NCBI GenBank assembly: GCA_964016885.1
Contig: OZ024766.1
Location: 20,026,001-20,090,000 of the forward strand
Source: Eledone cirrhosa
Taxonomy: Eukaryota
Reading direction: 5' to 3'
Length of the DNA stretch: 64,000 nucleotides
Each line of letters begins with the position of its first letter. The first letter of the stretch is position 1. The position numbers and the translations under genes were made by a program. Shown here one piece after another: positions 10,021 to 52,017 of the stretch. Below the pieces are notes generated by a model. The model had not been told where the DNA came from and ran no database searches. It was given only the letters and a program-made list of their open reading frames with translations.

Positions 10021-10451
10021 TATATATATTTATATATATACACATGTTTATGTGTATATATATATACACATATTTATGTGTATGTATATATATATATATA
10101 TATACACATATTTATGTGTATATATATAACGAAGGAAATGTGGTAAGAAGCCAGGTGGACCATAACGCACCAAAGTACTCAATACTTAGGGTAGTAGAGT
10201 GGGTAATAGGAACAAGTAAGACCCCGGGGGTCTTACTTGTTCCTATGTGTATATATATATACACATATTTATTTGTATGTATATATATATATATATACAC
10301 ATATTTATGTGTATATATATATATATTTACTACTCCACATTCTTCGTCTAAGTATAATTTGTAATGTTATTTACAAAACTAGGAATAAAATAATTCTTGA
10401 GATATTCACTGCGAACCTGTACTTTCTCTATATCCTTTTCGGACCTGGTGT

Positions 10452-15820: not shown

Positions 15821-17904
15821 TTAATGCAACACAATCAGACAAGATAAAAACCATACCACTCACCCAAAATAGTGCCACCAATGTTAATATTTTCAATAAA
15901 ACTTTTACTAAGAAAATCTTCTCCTTTCATTTTATTTGTAGAAGTTGTAACCAAGACTTGTGCTGACAAATCTGTATCGTTCAGAATTTACACACGCTAT
16001 ATATATGTGAATGTATGTGTGTAGAAATTTGTGTCCCCTTTTGTTTGTTGCATATGTAGTGGATAAATGTATTCTTCTGTGTATGAATGATAAAAAGAAT
16101 AATGCCAGAATTGTGATGTTGACAATGTTTATTTTACAATAACAATATTAACTTGTTGCTACATTGAATATCAAGTAATAAAAATTGTGACAGGAATTAT
16201 CACTACATCAATTTGCTGACTAGCTACTTCGAGCTAGCGTGTATGTATGTATCAATACAATGATACACGAGAAGTGATTCAACAGGAAGACAAAGAATAG
16301 ATAAAACCCAGAAGTAAACAGTATAATGAAACCTACTGAGTGTGTGTGTATCCTTAGTATTTGTTATTCCTCTCAAGGACTGCTGCTTCGGTCTCTCTTG
16401 TTTGGTGGTGTAGTCTGTGGCCAAGAAGGTGAGAGCCAGTAAGGCCAGGAGAGAGAGATAGAGTAAAAGGTCAGTAGAAGTCTGTAGACCCCAAGAGGTC
16501 TGTAGAATGTGCATGTTTCATATCGTTATTCTCTTAAGGACTACTGCTTCGTGGTCTGGCTGCTGGATTCCCTTTGTACTTGTATTTATAATAACCCTAT
16601 AGCTAGAAGGATGTGTATACGGGGTTGATTTATGAGTAGCCATGTGAGGTTCAGCTATCTTGAAGCTGGGGTCACAGGTCAAGTGGCATGTATGGTTATC
16701 ATTGTTGTCTCTTGACTAAATTCTTCACTGTATTCATTGGTAATTCTATATATATATTTATATATATACACATATTTATGTGTATATATATATACACATA
16801 TTTATGTGTATGTATATATATATTTATACACATATTTATGTGTATATATATATAACGAAGGAAATGTGGTAAGAAACCAGGTGGACCATAACGCACCAAA
16901 GTACTCAATACTTAGGGTAGTAGAGTGGGTAATAGGAACAAGTAAGACCCCGGGGGTCTTACTTGTTCCTATGTGTATATATATATATATACACATATTT
17001 ATTTGTATGTATATATATATATATACACATATTTATGTGTATATATATATATATTTACTACTCCACATTCTTCGTCTAAGTATAATTTGTAATGTTATTT
17101 ACAAAACTAGGAAGAAAATAATTCTTGAGATATTCACTGCGAACCTGTACTTTCTCTATATCCTTTTCGGACCTGGTGTGGATATATATATATATATATA
17201 TATATACGTATATATTTTTTTATCTATTTCATATTTGTGCTATTTGTAATGTTATTAATACAACCAGGAATAAAATAATTCTTACTCTAAACCTTATCAT
17301 TTACTGCGAGCCTGTAATGTCTTTATTTCCTGTCCCTGCCCCACCTACTTTCGTTCATTCATTAATTTACTTCAAACTCAATCAATTCCTGTCTCTTTCT
17401 TCTATATTTTATATTTTCAAGGTATTTCAACAATTTTTATCTGTTTTACGTTTCTTTCATTAATTTATTCCGTTTTATATTTAAAATATTTCTGACTAAT
17501 TTTTCCCGTATTTTCTGCCTAATACTTATATACTTTATATATATAAAGTATATATATATAAATATATATATATAAAGTATATATATATATATAAAGTATA
17601 TATATATATATAAAGTATATATAAATATATGTCTATATATATATATATATGTATTCATGTATATGTGCATATATATATATGTGTATATATATTGTATATA
17701 TACATACATACATACGTTATACATACTAGACAAGATAATACACCTTCACATCTGATATAAGAATACGGATAGGCTATGTAGCCGGTAAAACCAAAAGGGG
17801 TGAAACACATATTGCTATAGTGTTTCACCAGCTCTTCCTCAATCATTCATAGATGTGAGTGTATATAATAATTATTTTGTATAATGTGTCTATAAATATA
17901 TATG

Positions 17905-30455: not shown

Positions 30456-31025
30456 TATATATATATACACATATTTATGTGTACATATATATATACACAT
30501 ATTTATGTACATATATATATTTACTACACCACATTCTTCGTCTAAGTATAATTTGTAATGTTATTTACAAAACTAGGAATAAAATAATTCATGAGATATT
30601 CACTGCGAACCTGTACTTTCTCTATATCTCTTTTGGACCTGGTGTGTATATATATATATATATATGCAAAAGTTCTATTTAAATTGTTGGGATACAACAA
30701 ACAAATATTTTTATAACTGAATATAAAGCACTCAACAAATATTTGGAGTAAACATACGATATTAACAAATGGAAACTATATTTATAAAACCATATCTATT
30801 TTATACATATTTGAAATATGTATAATAAAATAGATATGGTTTTATAAATATAGTTTCCATTTGTTAATATCATATATATATGTGTGTGTATATATTTTTT
30901 TATCTAATTGATATTTGTAATGTTATTTATGCAACCAGGAATAAAATAATTCTTGAGATATTCACTTCGAACCTGTACTTTCTCTATATCTTTTTCGGAC
31001 CTGGTGTGTATATATATATATATAT

Positions 31026-39444: not shown

Positions 39445-39517
39445 TAATCAGGGTGGGAATCGAACTCACGACCTTCGGATTGCCGGTGCGCTGCTCTACC
39501 AACTGAGCTACCTGACC
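39445..39517 (-). pseudogene. tRNA-like sequence (pseudo-tRNA or SINE head; GGC at the anticodon position)
   Basis: 73 nt: GGTCAGG-TA-GCTC-AGTTGGTA-GAGC...GTGAG-TTCGATT-CCCAC-CCTGATT-A. Acceptor, D and T arms pair, but the anticodon stem has two mismatches and C33. Confidence 0.7.
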
Positions 39518-40680: not shown

Positions 40681-40978
40681 AAATGGAAACTATATTTATA
40701 AAACCATATTTATTTCAGGGATACCATATTAAAAATATGGTATGCCTTCGTCAGATAAAATACAATATATAAACAGTTTTATAAATAATTTTGACGTACC
40801 ATAAATATAAGCGACCATTAAATTTAATGGTCGCTTATATTTATGGTACGTCAAAATTATTTATAAAACTGTTTATATATTGTATTTTATCTGACGAAGG
40901 CATACCATATTTTTAATATGGTATCCCTGAAATATGTATAATGAAATAAATATGGTTTTATAAATATAGTTTCCATTT
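40681..40978. repeat. Spacerless palindrome with 142/156-bp arms
   Basis: Centre ccattaaa|tttaatgg at 40822/40823. The left arm lacks 14 bp. Confidence 0.92.
40883..40948 (+). ncRNA. Minimal type I hammerhead ribozyme motif
   Basis: TATTTTAT-CTGACGA-AGGcATACCATATT-ttt-AATATGGTATcCCT-GAAA-TATGTA-TA^ATGAAATA: complete core, 8-bp stem I, long stem II, minimal stem III, AUA cleavage triplet. Confidence 0.72.
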
Positions 40979-41965: not shown

Positions 41966-42936
41966 AATAATTGTCCCCCACCCTCACTTTGATCTCAAAT
42001 AATTGTCTCCTACCCTCGCTTAGGTCTCAATTAATTTTCCCCCACCCTCACTCATTTAATTTTCAGATTTTTTACACCACCACCCCACTCTTAATTCACC
42101 CCACCCATTTAAAATAAATAGGATGGGTTGTGGTCTCATTATGTAAACTAAATGACTAATTTTAATGGTCTTAAGAGCTCATATACATACATATGTATAT
42201 ATATATATGTATATATATGAGCCCTTAAGACCAGTAAAATAACCTCTCTAGTGACACAAACAATACACCCGGTCCTTGCTGTAAAGTGGTTGATGAGAGG
42301 AAAGGCATCGAAACAGAAAAGATAAAAAATAGTGCTAAAATTATGTAATCCCTACGAATAAAAATTCTTACTAATTGTGTCTACAAGCCTAACACAAGTC
42401 ATGTTAACGGGGTGCCTAGGGTAGCCATGTGTGAGAATCCTTTGACTGTTACTAAGCAATTACACAGCACTTTTCCCCTTCCAGGTAGAAAGAACTGTTA
42501 CTCAAGGAACTGTCAAGTTACACATCTCAGGTCTCAGACAATTACCATGTTAGAATGTCATAAGAATGAAGTTCTTGGGTAAAGGCTATAGGGCAGACCT
42601 CCCAAAAGTTAGAAGGATATAGTTCATAGAGCATCGTGGAATATCACTGCTTACTTTGGAGAGAATAACTCTGGACAGGAAAGTTGATATCTACAGTTTA
42701 TCAATATAGAAATATAAAATTTCCAATGTTAAATCTATCTCTGTTTCTAAAGTATTCTCTATTATCTCATACTGTTTCTTTCTTATTTCAGAATATTAGA
42801 TGACATTTGCATCATCTTCAGATCTTGACTGAGATCACCGTTGCCGGAAATATAGCAGAAGAAATATCTTCAGGAATATAATTTATAAAATAAGACGAGA
42901 ATAACATCTGTAAATTCTGCCAAGGGAAGAAGAAAC

Positions 42937-45405
42937 ATGGAAACTAAATTGAGTGAGAAGAAGATTAAATGTGAAACATTGTCTAGAGATATGGCTATTC
43001 CAGAAGAGATGTCAAAATCTAGAGGAGGGAAACCATATCACTGTGATATTTGTGGTAAATCATTCTCTCAAAATGGTCACTTAATTTCACACAAACGTAC
43101 CCATACAGGAGACAGGCCATACCACTGTGATATCTGTGGTAAATCATTCTCTCGAAGTAGTGACTTAACTAGACACAAACGTATACATACAGGAGACAAG
43201 CCATACCACTGTGATATCTGTGGTAAATCATTCTGTGATAGTAGTAACTTGACTTGCCACAAACGTACACATACAGGAAACAAGCCATACCACTGCAACA
43301 TCTGTGGTAAATCATTCTATGTTTGTAGTACCTTAACTAGACACAAACGTATACATACAGGAGACAAGCCATACCACTGTGATATCTGTGGTAATTCATT
43401 CTCTGATAATGGTACCTTAACTAGCCACAAACGTACCCATACAGGAGACAAGCCATACTACTGTGATATCTGTGGTAAATCATTCTCTAAAAGTAGTCAC
43501 TTAACTATACACAAACGTATACATACAGGAGACAAGCCATACCACTGTGATATCTGTGGTAAATCATTCTCTGTTAGTGAAAGCTTACGTATACACAAAC
43601 GTACCCATACAGGAGACAAGCCATACCACTGTGATATCTGTGGTAAATCATTCTCTCTAAATAGTCACTTAACTATACACAAACGTATACATACAGGAGA
43701 CAAGCCATACCACTGTGATATCTGTGGTAAATCATTCTCTGTAAGTTATGCCGTAACTAGCCACAAACGTACCCATACAGGAGACAAGCCATACCACTGC
43801 GATATCTGTGGTAAATCATTTTCTCAAAGTTGTCACTTAACTAGACACAAACGTACCCATACAGGAGACGAGCCATACCACTGTGATATCTGTGGTAAAT
43901 CATTCTCTGCAAGTCATCACTTAACTAGACACAAACGTATACATACAGGAGAGAATCCATACCACTGTGATATCTGTGGTAAATCATTCTCTGTAAGTTA
44001 TGCCTTAACTAAACACAAATATACCCATACCGGAGACAAGCCATACCACTGTGATATCTGTGGTAAATCATTCTTTATAAGTGCTAACTTAACTAGACAC
44101 AAACGTATACATACAGGAGAGAAGCCATACCACTGTGATATCTGTGGTAAATCATTCTCTGTAAGTGCTAACTTAACTAGACACAAACTTACCCATAATG
44201 GAGACAAGCCATACCACTGTGATATCTGTGGTAAATCATTCTCTAAATCAGATAGCTTAACTATACACAAACGTATACATACAGGAGACAAGCCATATCA
44301 CTGTGATATCTGTGGTAAATCATTTTCTGATAGAAGTGACTTAACTAAACACAAACGTACCCATACAGGAGACAAGCCATACCACTGTGATATCTGTGGT
44401 AAATTATTCTCTCAAAGTAGTCACTTAACTAGCCACAAATATACCCATACAGGAGACAAGCCATACCACTGTGATATCTGTGGTAAATCATTCTTTACAA
44501 GTAGTGACTTAACTAGACACAAACGCATACATACAGGAGACACGTCATACCACTGTGACATCTGTGGTAAATTATTTTCTGCATCAAGTTATTTAACTAG
44601 ACACAAATATACCCATACAGGATACAAGCCATACCACTGTGATATCTGTGGTAAATCATTCTCTCAAAGTAGTACCTTAACTAGACACAAACGTATACAT
44701 ACAGGCGACAAGCCATACCACTGTGATATCTGTGGTAAATTATTTTCTGCATCAAGTAATTTAACTACGCACAAATATACCCATACGGGAGACAAGCCAT
44801 ACCACTGTGATATCTGTGGTAAATCATTCTTTATAAGTGGTAAATTAACTAGACACAAACGTATACATACAGGAGACAAGCCATACCACTGCGATATCTG
44901 TGGTAAATTATTCTCTGTATCAAGTAGTTTAACTAGACACAAAAATACCCATACAGGAGACAAGCCATACCACTGCGATATCTGTGGTATATCATTCTCT
45001 GATAGTAGTACCTTAACTAAACACTTACGTACCCATACAGGAGACAAGTCATACCACTGCGATATCTGTGGTAAATTATTCTCTGTATCAAGTAGTTTAA
45101 CTAGACACAAAAATACCCATACAGGAGACAAGCCATACCACTGCGATATCTGTGGTATATCATTCTCTGATAGTAGTACCTTAACTAAACACTTACGTAC
45201 CCATACAGGAGACAAGCCATACCACTGTGATATCTGTGGTAAATCATTCTCTGTAAGTAATAACTTAACTAGACACAAACGTATACATACAGGAGACAAG
45301 CCATACCACTGTGATATCTGTCGTAAATCATTCTCTGCAAGTAGTAACTTAACTAAACACTTACGTACCCATACAGGAGACAAGTCTTACCACTGCGATA
45401 TCTGA
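42937..45405 (+). CDS. C2H2 zinc-finger protein, 822 aa, 28 fingers, 29th truncated by TGT-to-TGA
   Basis: 33 + 28 x 28 + YHCDI*. The remainder of the terminal finger is visible after the stop. Confidence 0.9.
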
Positions 45406-47519: not shown

Positions 47520-49260
47520 TAAAATTTGGTTGAGGGCTTCCTGTATTTGGGAGCAAAGACTGGGAATACGGAAGATGATGTGGTTGAGAGGAAGAGCAAG
47601 GCCTGGGCGGCGTGCCACAGCTTCAGATCGGTGTGGAAGTCAGACCTGAAAATCTGCCTCTTCATCGTTGAAGTGGAGTCTATGCTGCTGTACAGGTCTG
47701 AGACTTGGACACTGGCCAAGAAACTCACTCAGATGGTGGATGGGTGCTACACGAGAATGCTGAGGATGGCTCGTTGCTGTAGTGGAGTCTGTGCTGCTGT
47801 ACGGGTCTGAGACTTGGACACTGACCAAGAAACTCACTCAGATGGTGGATGGGTGCTACACGAGAATGCTGAGGATGGCTCGTTGTTGTAGTGGAGTCTG
47901 TGCTGCTGTACGGGTCTGAGACTTGCACACTGACCAAGAAACTCACTCAGATGGTGGATGGGTGCTACACGAGAATGCTGAGGATGGCTCGTTGTTGTAG
48001 TGGAGTCTGTGCTGCTGTACGGGTCTGAGACTTGGACACTGGCCAAGAAACTCACTCAGATGGTGGATGGGTGCTACACGAGAATGCTGAGGATGGCTCG
48101 TTGTTGTAGTGGAGTCTGTGCTGCTGTACGGGTCTGAGACTTGGACACTGGCCAAGAAACTCACTCAGATGGTGGATGGGTGCTACACGAGAATGCTGAG
48201 GATGGCTCGTTGTTGTAGTGGAGTCTGTGCTGCTGTACGGGTCTGAGACTTGGACACTGGCCAAGAAACTCACTCAGATGGTGGATGGGTGCTACACGAG
48301 AATGCTGAGGATGGCTCGTTGTTGTAGTGGAGTCTGTGCTGCTGTACGGGTCTGAGACTTGCACACTGACCAAGAAACTCACTCAGATGGTGGATGGGTG
48401 CTACACGAGAATGCTGAGGATGGTTCGTTGTTGTAGTGGAGTCTGTGCTGCTGTACGGGTCTGAGACTTGGACACTGGCCAAGAAACTCACTCAGATGGT
48501 GGATGGGTGCTACACGAGAATGCTGAGGATGGCTCGTTGTTGTAGTGGAGTCTGTGCTGCTGTACGGGTCTGAGACTTGGACACTGGCCAAGAAACTCAC
48601 TCAGATGGTGGATGGGTGCTACACGAGAATGCTGAGGATGGCTCGTTGTTGTAGTGGAGTCTGTGCTGCTGTACGGGTCTGAGACTTGGACACTGGCCAA
48701 GAAACTCACTCAGATGGTGGATGGGTGCTACACGAGAATGCTGAGGATGGCTCTGAACATTAATCAGTATACACTGAGGATGAAAAACTCAAAGCTGTAT
48801 GGGAGCCTCCCAAAAGTCAGCTCAAAAGTGACACAGAGGAGACTGAGGTTAGCTGGACATGCTCACCGACATCCAGAGTTGACACTGGACTGTGCTCCTG
48901 TGGGAGCCCCTGCATGGACACACTGGAAGAGGGAGACTGAGGTTAGCTGGACATGCTCACCGACATCCAGAGTTGACACTGGACTGTGCTCCTGTGGGAG
49001 CCCCTGCATGGACACACTGGAAGAGGGAGACTGAGGTTAGCTGGACATGCTCACCGACATCCAGAGTTGACACTGCACTCAGTGCTCCTGTGGGATCCCC
49101 TACATGGACACACTGGAAGAGGAAGACCAAGGTTAACGTATGTTGAGGCACTAAGGACAGACACTGGTCTGTTGGAGACGCAGGACATAGCAGCGATAAT
49201 GAGGGACAGAGACTGCTGGAGAGAACTCGTCCATGGATCTCGAGAATTTTACCCGCCTTA
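47520..49260 (+). mobile_element. 3' part of an RTE-clade LINE ORF with internal tandem expansions (109 bp x ~10, 94 bp x 3)
   Basis: FLYLG...ESVLLYGSETWTL...DGCYTRMLRMALNI...RRLRLAGHAHRH...GRGRPRLTY...MRDRDCWR, the typical RTE C-terminus. Confidence 0.88.
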
Positions 49261-49558: not shown

Positions 49559-50132
49559 TATGTATTATATATATAGATGTATATATTTATATTTATGGGT
49601 ATATATATATATTATACATACATATACATCTATATATATATGTAATATATATATAGATGTATATATTTATATTTATGTGTATATATATTATACATACATA
49701 TTTTAATGTATTATATATATATGTAATATATATATATATATTTATATTTATATGTATATATATATATATATTATACATACATATATATTTTAATGTATTA
49801 TATATATGTAATATATATATATATAGATGTATATATTTATATTTATGTGTATATATATTATAATATATATACATATATAAATATACATTATATATATGTT
49901 ATAATATATATAATAATTATTTTATTTATTTACTTATACGAAACAAGGAACAAGTGGTGTATATATAATATATAATACATATGATACGTATATATAATAT
50001 ATACATATATATATATATATATATGAATATATATAACAATTATTTTAATTAATTACTCATATAAAACAAGAAACAAGTTGGCAAGAATGAATTTATTTAA
50101 AAAAATCTGCCGTCGTTAAAAATAATAAAATT

Positions 50133-50160
50133 CCGCCATTGCTTCTCCCATGATGCAACG
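50133..50160. promoter_or_regulatory. YY1-like and ZNF143/Staf-like motifs in a CpG-containing patch
   Basis: CCGCCATT at 50133-50140 next to TTCTCCCATGATGCAACG at 50143-50160. Confidence 0.4.
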
Positions 50161-50564
50161 GGGCAGGTAAATTATTTGACGCTTTAGCGACATCAGTTCC
50201 TTGACTTTGTCCAACACGAAATCTCAAGAACGATAACTCCGTCTTTACTTAATCGCAAAAATGGGTGAAAAAAAGTTTTTTAATGAAGGCAAATTTTTTT
50301 AAAATTTCTTTCTCATCAACTTGTTCCTTGTTTTATATGAGTAATTAATTAATTAATTAATTAAAATGATTGTTATATATATTATATTTATTATTATTTC
50401 TATTATATATATATATTTATAATATATATATATATATTTCTATTATATATATATATATTATAAATATATAATATATATATATATATATATACGTATGTCC
50501 CGGGTTGAGTCGGAGATAACCACAGTAAGTAAGGTACTCAATACATGGCAGAGTAAAATTCTTT

Positions 50565-50680
50565 TATTTTATAGAAGGAGCTTCTACAGGACTAGTACTG
50601 TTTCATTCAGATTAAATCTTCAGGAAGCTGAAGATTTAATCTGAATGAAACAGTACTAGTCCTGTAGAAGCTCCTTCTAT

Positions 50681-50686
<6 letters not shown>
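50565..50686. repeat. Perfect hairpin, 59-bp arms, 4-nt loop
   Basis: 50565-50623 is the exact reverse complement of 50628-50686. Confidence 0.93.
50579..50629 (-). ncRNA. Type I hammerhead ribozyme motif (weak stem II, U-U at its base)
   Basis: AGCTTC-CTGAAGA-TTTAATCTGAAT-GAAA-CAG-tactagtc-CTG-TA^GAAGCT. Confidence 0.62.
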
Positions 50687-50716
<30 letters not shown>

Positions 50717-50718
50717 TG

Positions 50719-50769
50719 AGATTCTACAGGGCTAGAACTGTTTCATTCTTTAGAAATCATCAGGAATCT
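50719..50769 (-). ncRNA. Type I hammerhead ribozyme motif (U-U at the base of stem II)
   Basis: AGATTC-CTGATGA-T-TTC-taaa-GAA-T-GAAA-CAG-ttctagcc-CTG-TA^GAATCT. Stem I covaries with the 50579 copy. Confidence 0.68.
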
Positions 50770-51264
50770 GGGTATCAAAAAATAAATATGGTATTTATAG
50801 GTCTCTACAAGTGGTAGAAGAGGGTGGGGAGTGGGATGGGTGTAGGTCATTGGTTGATAGAAAAGGGAATTCATTAAAAGCTAATTCTACAAAGCTATAG
50901 TTTATTTTTATTTATATTTATTTATGTTTTTAGAGTAACAAGGGCAGACAGAACTCCATAAACAGGTTCCGGATGGCATACCATTCCTTGTCAATAAGTT
51001 TCTCTTAAGCTAACAGATGTCTATAAGATCAGTGGGGGGTCAGTCATGGTAGATAGATTTAAAGGAAAGGGACATTCTTTAAAAGCTAAAATCATTAAGG
51101 TTCCACTAAGTGACAAAGGTTTAGAGAATTCTGTAGACATAATACGTATATATTTAATATATATATATATATATATTTATATACAGCCAGAGTAAACCTC
51201 TTCAAATGAAGTCGGTGTTATAACGGTATGTCGAACCTATTTGTCTATAAAACTGTTTATATTG

Positions 51265-51330
51265 TATTTTGTCTGATGAAGGCATAGCATATTGTTAATA
51301 TGATATCCCCGAAATATATATAATGAAATA
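51265..51330 (+). ncRNA. Minimal hammerhead motif, diverged copy of the 40883 family
   Basis: TATTTTGT-CTGATGA-AGGcATAgCATATT-gtt-AATATGaTATcCCC-GAAA-TATATA-TA^ATGAAATA. Confidence 0.62.
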
Positions 51331-51407
51331 AATATGGTTTTATAAATATAGTTTTCCATTTATTTAATATTGTATATTTATATAATATATATATATGTAA
51401 TATATAC

Positions 51408-51455
<48 letters not shown>

Positions 51456-51532
51456 GCACATATATATATATATAATATATACATGTAACATACGTATTAT
51501 ATATTTAATATATGTTACATGTATATATTATG

Positions 51533-51692: not shown

Positions 51693-52017
51693 TGTTACAT
51701 GTATATATTATATATATCTGTGTGTGTGTGTGTATCAATCTATCTGTGTGTGTGTTTTAATGTGTCAAAACATTTCCTTATCACCGACTGGGTCTCGCAC
51801 AACGCCTGACAATCCCAAGTCAATTTAAGAGCCTTATCAATATTTCAAACAACATTTGGTCTGATTCACATCCAACTTATCAAACACACTGAATTGAAAA
51901 CCTACCCTTGACCTGGTACCCTGGTGCAGTCTGTCACTCACCCCGGCCCTGCTGCATTTCGGGCCCAAGGGTGTAAACTCTCCAAATATCCTGATTTTGG
52001 TGGCTCTCTGACAGGTT

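Follow-up and report, generated by a model that had tools for sequence, protein, structure and literature searches.

The 64,000-nt stretch of DNA that we analyzed (the window; positions 20,026,001 to 20,090,000 of the forward strand of contig OZ024766.1, from Eledone cirrhosa assembly GCA_964016885.1) raises the question of whether two hammerhead motifs that lie close together on one strand work as a unit and, if they do not, how they came to be neighbours. The preliminary description of this DNA had reported two variant hammerheads on the same strand, 140 nt apart, and our scan of both strands bears this out. The two motifs, which we will call A and B, are:

50579 to 50629, minus strand: hammerhead A, type I, with U10.1-U11.1 and a GUA triplet; predicted cut at 50585/50584; the third pair of stem II is mutated.
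50719 to 50769, minus strand: hammerhead B, type I, with U10.1-U11.1 and a GUA triplet; predicted cut at 50725/50724.

We are fairly confident, from sequence comparisons, that A and B are hammerheads from the pseudo-LTRs of two Penelope-like families, that they arrived as separate insertions into (TA)n and probably do not act together, and that the RNA start and reverse transcription proposed below would account for such insertions.

Both motifs fit the type I hammerhead: they have CUGANGA (CUGAAGA and CUGAUGA in the two window motifs), GAAA, an NUH triplet (GUA), and three stems with stem I open, with one broken stem II pair in A. Each has a 6-bp stem I, a 3-bp stem II above a U-U mismatch with a 4-nt loop II, and a 4-bp stem III (ACAG/CTGT) with an 8-nt loop III that contains CUAG. 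The U-U replaces the usual but non-obligatory G10.1-C11.1 pair. The identical stem III and GUA, the CTAG in loop 3, and the U-U at 10.1-11.1 had all been described before, and all are present. Stem I (AGCTTC/GAAGCT versus AGATTC/GAATCT) had been said to show a double compensatory change; it is altered on both sides, but at a single pair (2.4-1.4, C-G to A-U), not two. The third pair of stem II, C-G in a family copy, is an A-G mismatch in window A; in window B, loop III is changed. The Rfam hammerhead models gave no match at the gathering level across the window, and none with E up to 10 within 50300-51500. The motifs do not occur by chance, since their pattern has 24,538 exact matches in their own 3.0-Gb genome and the reversed control has 0. 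For family A, the pattern matches exactly at 1,925 sites genome-wide.

The route to a parent element led from the sequence upstream of B to an inverted and direct pair of copies with an endonuclease end, which was then used as the search query. Among 20 loci that were selected for long frames, 13 have a 758-codon frame. Hammerhead B lies immediately upstream of this frame in all 13, and a second direct copy lies 4.7–6.3 kb away in 12 of them. The order of a full-length family-B element is hammerhead, short leader, a 713-amino-acid ORF with reverse transcriptase (RT) and GIY-YIG endonuclease, long 3' UTR, hammerhead, and tail. The ORF has 1,173 relatives. Its motifs are DKT at 116, RWR (which is RWK-like), YRDD, CxCx5C at 566, a GIY-YIG-like stretch, CxxC at 666 before a glutamate (E), and CxH after an asparagine (N). 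Pfam gave a GIY-YIG match below threshold only (E = 0.016) and no RT match for this ORF. A single ORF with both RT (YRDD) and a GIY-YIG-like stretch is what defines Penelope-like elements (PLEs), and so are pseudo-LTRs with a hammerhead, inverted 5' copies, and a tail at one end, which we also found. The Hydra clade of PLEs is defined by ORF motifs such as DKT, the RWK-like motif, CxCx5C, and the CxxC and CxH around E and N (Craig et al. 2021, PMC8557442), all of which this ORF has. The flanks, judged by eye, show the clade's preference for insertion into (TA)n. As for the CCHH endonuclease motif, which the clade lacks, no canonical CxxC precedes the YIG in this ORF, as judged by eye and without alignment to the reference clades. 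Our assignment to the Hydra clade is by these motifs. The ORF of family A is identical to that of family B at 515 of 695 positions (74%), and hammerhead A follows the ORF in one locus (L264). By these comparisons, A and B are the hammerheads of the pseudo-LTRs of sister Penelope-like families with Hydra-clade motifs.

Another candidate for the parent of A (L012/L035) proved to be chimeric and was dropped. Among 30 loci with its endonuclease, 29 have no copy of the motif within 1.5 kb and run on into different sequence. In L035 (G000:C1:2774545-2777931), the ORF of another Penelope-like family is fused, within its 3' UTR, to a family A 3' end.

In the window, the two families have left these features:

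About 50492 to 50686, minus strand: the whole family-A insertion, a 195-bp fold-back with a long-tailed arm (about 50492-50627) head to head with a short inverted arm.
50565 to 50686, no strand: a perfect palindrome with 59-bp arms and a 4-nt loop (50624-50627).
50628 to 50672, plus strand: an inverted copy of core A, without its own 5' strand of stem I.
50687 to 50710, no strand: the (TA)n tract that separates the two insertions; in sequence, this is the elements' preferred target.
50710 to 51139, minus strand: the family-B insertion, a 5'-truncated fragment of 3' UTR and pseudo-LTR that terminates at the short end.
50792 to 50799, minus strand: a TATA box, the putative promoter, 30 nt above the first base of B's stem I.

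The antisense copy of A, which sits between motifs A and B, was overlooked in the preliminary description. The family-A insertion aligns to L265, a natural copy of that family, with 95% identity over 183 nt, part of which is (TA)n flank, and the family-B insertion matches the full-length copy L082 at 92% over 430 nt. A TATA box is also found upstream of family-A copies. As judged from these alignments and boundaries, A and B are two separate insertions, from two sister families, in one (TA)n tract. Just past B's truncated end, 51140-51152 looks like the final bases of the long tail in reverse orientation and is perhaps a remnant of a second arm of B. A MITE-like element of about 500 bp with imperfect terminal inverted repeats (49961-50457) adjoins insertion A.

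A perfect 59-bp palindrome at a locus that is known from the assembly alone could be a fold-back artefact of sequencing or assembly. However, insertions with the head-to-head layout of A are found at many loci, and their junctions vary. In 39 of 41 head-to-head pairs a long 3' end is matched with a short one, and the arms differ from each other in the recurring loci. Inverted 5' copies are also a described feature of PLEs (Craig et al. 2021, PMC8557442). We think that an artefact is highly improbable.

The two motifs had been proposed to act as a dimeric ribozyme or as the source of a small RNA: one transcript would either fold into a dimeric hammerhead or be cut twice to release a 140-nt RNA or circle. 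They do share a strand at this short spacing, B has kept its TATA box so that a read-through RNA is possible, and loop III duplexes have predicted energies of −11 to −15 kcal/mol, versus −1.4 kcal/mol for the hairpin. But in the predicted fold of RNA that reads through from B into A, the antisense arm locks A into a 59-bp hairpin, and A's stem II pair is broken, so a tandem dimer or a 140-nt product is unlikely. Furthermore, none of the six same-strand pairs within 1.2 kb among 236 other motif contexts is an A-B pair (their spacings are 318–1,109 nt), and the ribozymes of full elements are 4.7–6.3 kb apart. The proposal is not supported, given this fold, these pairs, and the separate origins of the insertions, and we would be very surprised if the pair were a functional tandem. 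Judging from sequence, the window neighbours are likely a chance pair of dead copies and no special tandem unit. For the family in general, dimerization via loop III is still plausible, as modelled.

Elsewhere in the genome, G000:C1:83679803-83688435 has at least 9 same-strand copies of hammerhead B about 1.07–1.11 kb apart, in a retrozyme-like tandem array. Family-B matches that retain upstream sequence are also imbalanced by strand (3,736 versus 1,590), which hints at a far larger array elsewhere.

Is the ribozyme itself maintained? To assess conservation we used 90 loci that were picked by their tails, not by the ribozyme, among the 100 matches listed of 15,882; these have 94 motif copies, some of which are the two arms of one insertion. 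In this sample, U10.1 is kept in 93 of the 94 copies and U11.1 in all 94. The core, stem II, and loop III are each conserved in 85–94 of the copies, loop II takes more than 10 forms, and N7 and the flanks also vary while the catalytic positions and GUA stay. Only 10 matches genome-wide have both U's changed (this counts double changes). One subfamily, represented by two rows of the tail-picked sample, has a C-A mismatch in stem I.

The preliminary description had inferred a structurally selected, non-canonical hammerhead family. That this is a repeated family with a conserved U-U and signs of selection holds up; that the U-U makes it a new family does not, because the U-U is natural in the hammerheads of Perreault et al. 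2011 and in 14 of 26 Hydra-clade rows of File S2 of Craig et al. 2021. Specifically, Perreault et al. (PMC3088659) describe natural U10.1-U11.1 hammerheads and find U-U to be the most active and best tolerated mispair, and the 14 rows (PMC8557442) have a U before and a U after stem II. In the machine-read text of Fig. S3 of Cervera and de la Pena 2014 (PMC4209133), the Hydra magnipapillata row also reads U-stem-U.

We also considered that the motif might be a dead ribozyme: it might be maintained as an RNA fold that lies near the promoter or binds protein, or might merely be inherited from a few master copies. The minimum-energy fold of each isolated motif is not the hammerhead (z = −1.23 and −0.36), the 3-bp stem II stands upon a U-U mismatch, there is no excess of insertions that begin at the cut site (see below), and metazoan PLE hammerheads had very low activity in vitro (Cervera and de la Pena 2014, PMC4209133). 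By inspection, stem I alone differs between families by a change on both sides; stems II and III show invariance rather than covariation. On the other hand, the catalytic positions and GUA are all kept while N7, loop II, and the flanks vary, and the core is retained by families that are 26% apart in protein. A second family in the genome has G-C, G-U, or U-U at 10.1-11.1 around an intact core, and Perreault et al. 2011 (PMC3088659) rank the U-U as the best tolerated mispair. Overall, we think it quite unlikely that the ribozyme is dead across the family.

That second family (L223-L232; 1,033 matches) varies at 10.1-11.1 across its subfamilies: by a hand count among the 100 matches listed of 1,033, about 59 are U-U, 34 are G-C, 3 are G-U, and 4 are other. 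A third hammerhead family in the genome has U-U too. Another type I family in the window, whose stem II is long and whose stem III is palindromic and of the TATATA type, lies at 40883-40948 and 51265-51330 (both on the plus strand). Inverted repeats at 40711-40934 and 30758-30871 are similar to it in sequence, and it has relatives in many of the loci that we examined; it is probably another Penelope-like family. A scan of metagenomes with the motif pattern gave 7 matches, none with a PLE protein match. Rfam gave no match at these seven sites, and weak matches elsewhere in one contig (L221) only. By eye, 4 of the 7 are type III-like and 3 are not; these four contigs (L216, L217, L218, and L221) have apparent type III hammerheads whose stem II likewise reads U-UUC-loop-GAA-U.

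The junctions of the family's insertions bear on how its RNA is made and copied. We counted 5,326 family-B matches that retain upstream sequence, 2,284 genome-wide with a base other than C before stem I (the junction pattern excluded C at that position), 176 with an altered base at the cut site, and 188 with an altered base at a control site two bases away. Breaks at the first base of stem I, 30 nt below the TATA box, are about 12 times more common than at the cut site or the control. The cut site shows no excess of ends (176 versus 188), and 15 of 30 that we examined are point mutations. Among the matches listed, the base preceding stem I is G in 76 of 100, by a hand count. Of 76 junctions that were examined, 6 belong to long copies. 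Either the inverted arm or a simple repeat could have supplied the template for another 25, of which 18 have G, and G is present in 39 of the remaining 45; templating was judged by a 6-mer test, and microhomology of under 6 bases could explain part of the extra G.

Tail-bearing copies were also aligned. At a threshold of 90% identity to a natural A or B copy, 70 of 89 aligned, and the 19 that were dropped are mostly from other subfamilies. Among the 70, 27 end at the first bases of stem I, 31 end further in, 12 continue upstream (one spuriously), and in none is the cut site the furthest point reached. The two arms have the same loop II in 29 of 30 head-to-head pairs, versus a mean of 7.6 and a maximum of 16 after shuffling (this sample is enriched for family A); such identity could also stem from gene conversion or from fold-back copying of a single cDNA.

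Because breaks at the first base of stem I are about 12 times more common and usually come with an extra G, the junctions suggest that a capped RNA begins at the ribozyme and is mostly copied uncleaved. Other reverse transcriptases are known to add a G by copying the cap. Among the titles listed by a literature search, whose coverage did not extend to subscription journals, none is on the cap or on this junction pattern.

Since the CAG found where stem I starts is similar to a 3' splice site, we considered that the boundary might instead be the end of a leader intron, as in Drosophila Penelope. Several subfamilies have a pyrimidine-rich run and CAG ahead of the core, and Cervera and de la Pena 2014 (PMC4209133) place the end of the D. 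virilis intron at the 5' end of helix I. However, the junctions keep the AG, gain one G, and then diverge copy by copy with no shared upstream exon, and a TATA box lies 30 nt upstream. We consider the splice site to be an improbable explanation.

Instead of splicing, we propose that transcription from the TATA box would start at the first base of stem I and that the RNA would be capped. The element's RT would start at two internal sites, about 20 and about 85 nt past the ribozyme, with one start for each end of a cut in (TA)n, and its template would be mostly uncleaved RNA. A start near the 5' end would give tiny head-to-head products such as A, and a start in the 3' repeat would give 5'-truncated copies such as B. 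In vitro, the Poseidon element PAc of Anolis has two RT starts, its main template is uncleaved RNA, and its cleavage needs protein (Frangieh et al. 2024, PMC11167929). The ribozyme in our elements is likely slow and conditional, helped by a loop III dimer, by protein, or by both.

Why keep a ribozyme if the template is mostly uncleaved? The TATA box is absent from the linear capped RNA, so copies that regain a promoter need a circle, strand transfer, or read-through RNA. The most likely role, which we put forward tentatively, is that cutting at both repeats would give a unit-length RNA that can circularize, and from it copies that regain the promoter. Cutting at two repeats to make a circle was proposed by Cervera and de la Pena 2014 (PMC4209133). 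We saw no excess of copies that start at the cut site, which would have been direct support for this role. It is less probable that the motif acts as a protein-bound fold with cleavage being minor, and we also think it unlikely that the ribozyme decaps the element's own mRNA and so limits the output of protein. A broader reading, which is perhaps somewhat short of an even bet, is that the thousands of tiny head-to-head insertions are a fossil record of one capped RNA that was copied twice, with the cap becoming an extra G and the strong-stop cDNAs being joined head to head; in this reading the ribozyme under the cap would be a switch between translatable RNA and cut, circle-competent RNA, with only the latter regenerating a promoter.

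The rest of the window is also rich in repeats. A cluster of C2H2 zinc-finger arrays (6050-45405) has over 110 copies of an 84-nt repeat, including an 838-codon frame at 42889-45405 (plus strand). A tRNA-like sequence at 39445-39517 (minus strand) scores 51 bits with mismatched stems and is possibly the head of a SINE. Tandem arrays of 109, 94, 79, 315, and 96 nt occur at 47667-49135, 52017-54935, 58072-59646, and 60016-60797; when translated, the 109, 94, and 96-nt units look like what we take to be pieces of a LINE reverse-transcriptase tail. One hairpin with 18-bp arms occurs three times (1816-1857, 10206-10246, and 16932-16972).

What drew attention to this locus is nothing unusual: two dead copies from a known clade of retroelements, with a hammerhead variant that is already known. 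The value is in the family, which has tens of thousands of recent copies and was overlooked by the Rfam models in the window. The family's junctions point to where the RNA starts, to two RT start sites, and to the rarity of cleaved templates. And since one genome has intact ORFs along with natural G-C, G-U, and U-U variants, the role of the hammerhead in PLEs is directly testable.

How do these elements compare to known systems? Cervera and de la Pena reportedly described non-LTR retrozymes in 2020. These are head-to-tail repeats of a single unit, each with a hammerhead; the window pair has type I hammerheads in common with them, but its two members come from different families and are separated by an antisense arm and (TA)n. 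Non-LTR retrozymes have tandem type I hammerheads that derive from PLE pseudo-LTRs (Li et al. 2026, bioRxiv 10.64898/2026.07.22.740005). The hammerheads of Perreault et al. 2011 (PMC3088659) have the identical mismatch, in a passage that gives neither a PLE context nor a copy number. The PLEs of Cervera and de la Pena 2014 (PMC4209133) share the type I motif in both pseudo-LTRs, a palindromic loop III that suits dimers, and, as here, many truncated and opposite-strand copies. However, in their consensus 10.1-11.1 is G-C, A9 is followed by an additional base, helix II is long, and helix III is nearly absent, while our motifs have a short helix II and a helix III of 4 pairs.

PAc (Frangieh et al. 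2024, PMC11167929) resembles our families in its two internal RT starts, which set the tail, in its AT-rich target, and in its uncleaved template; both strands are extended, and the data presented have no reads at the cut site. It differs in being from another clade and in having an ORF that begins inside the ribozyme, and the sections of the report that we draw on mention neither a capped start at stem I nor an extra G.

The closest match is to the Hydra-clade PLEs of Craig et al. 2021 (PMC8557442; Penelope-1 to -18_HM, Hydra-1/2_aJap, Hydra-1_cRog, and Hydra-1_oBim), which have the same C-terminal GIY-YIG, the DKT, the CxCx5C linker, the CxxC and CxH around E and N, (TA)n targets, inverted 5' copies, and a type I hammerhead. 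Those elements are given as under 3 kb, versus about 5–6 kb here with a microsatellite-rich 3' UTR. Their hammerheads have mostly 4-bp stems and 1–3-nt loops, versus a 3-bp stem II, an 8-nt loop III, and a 65-nt tail here, and the hammerhead that is listed for Hydra-1_oBim is unlike the window motifs in sequence. Four of the Hydra rows in their File S2 share the ACAG/CTGT stem III of A and B.
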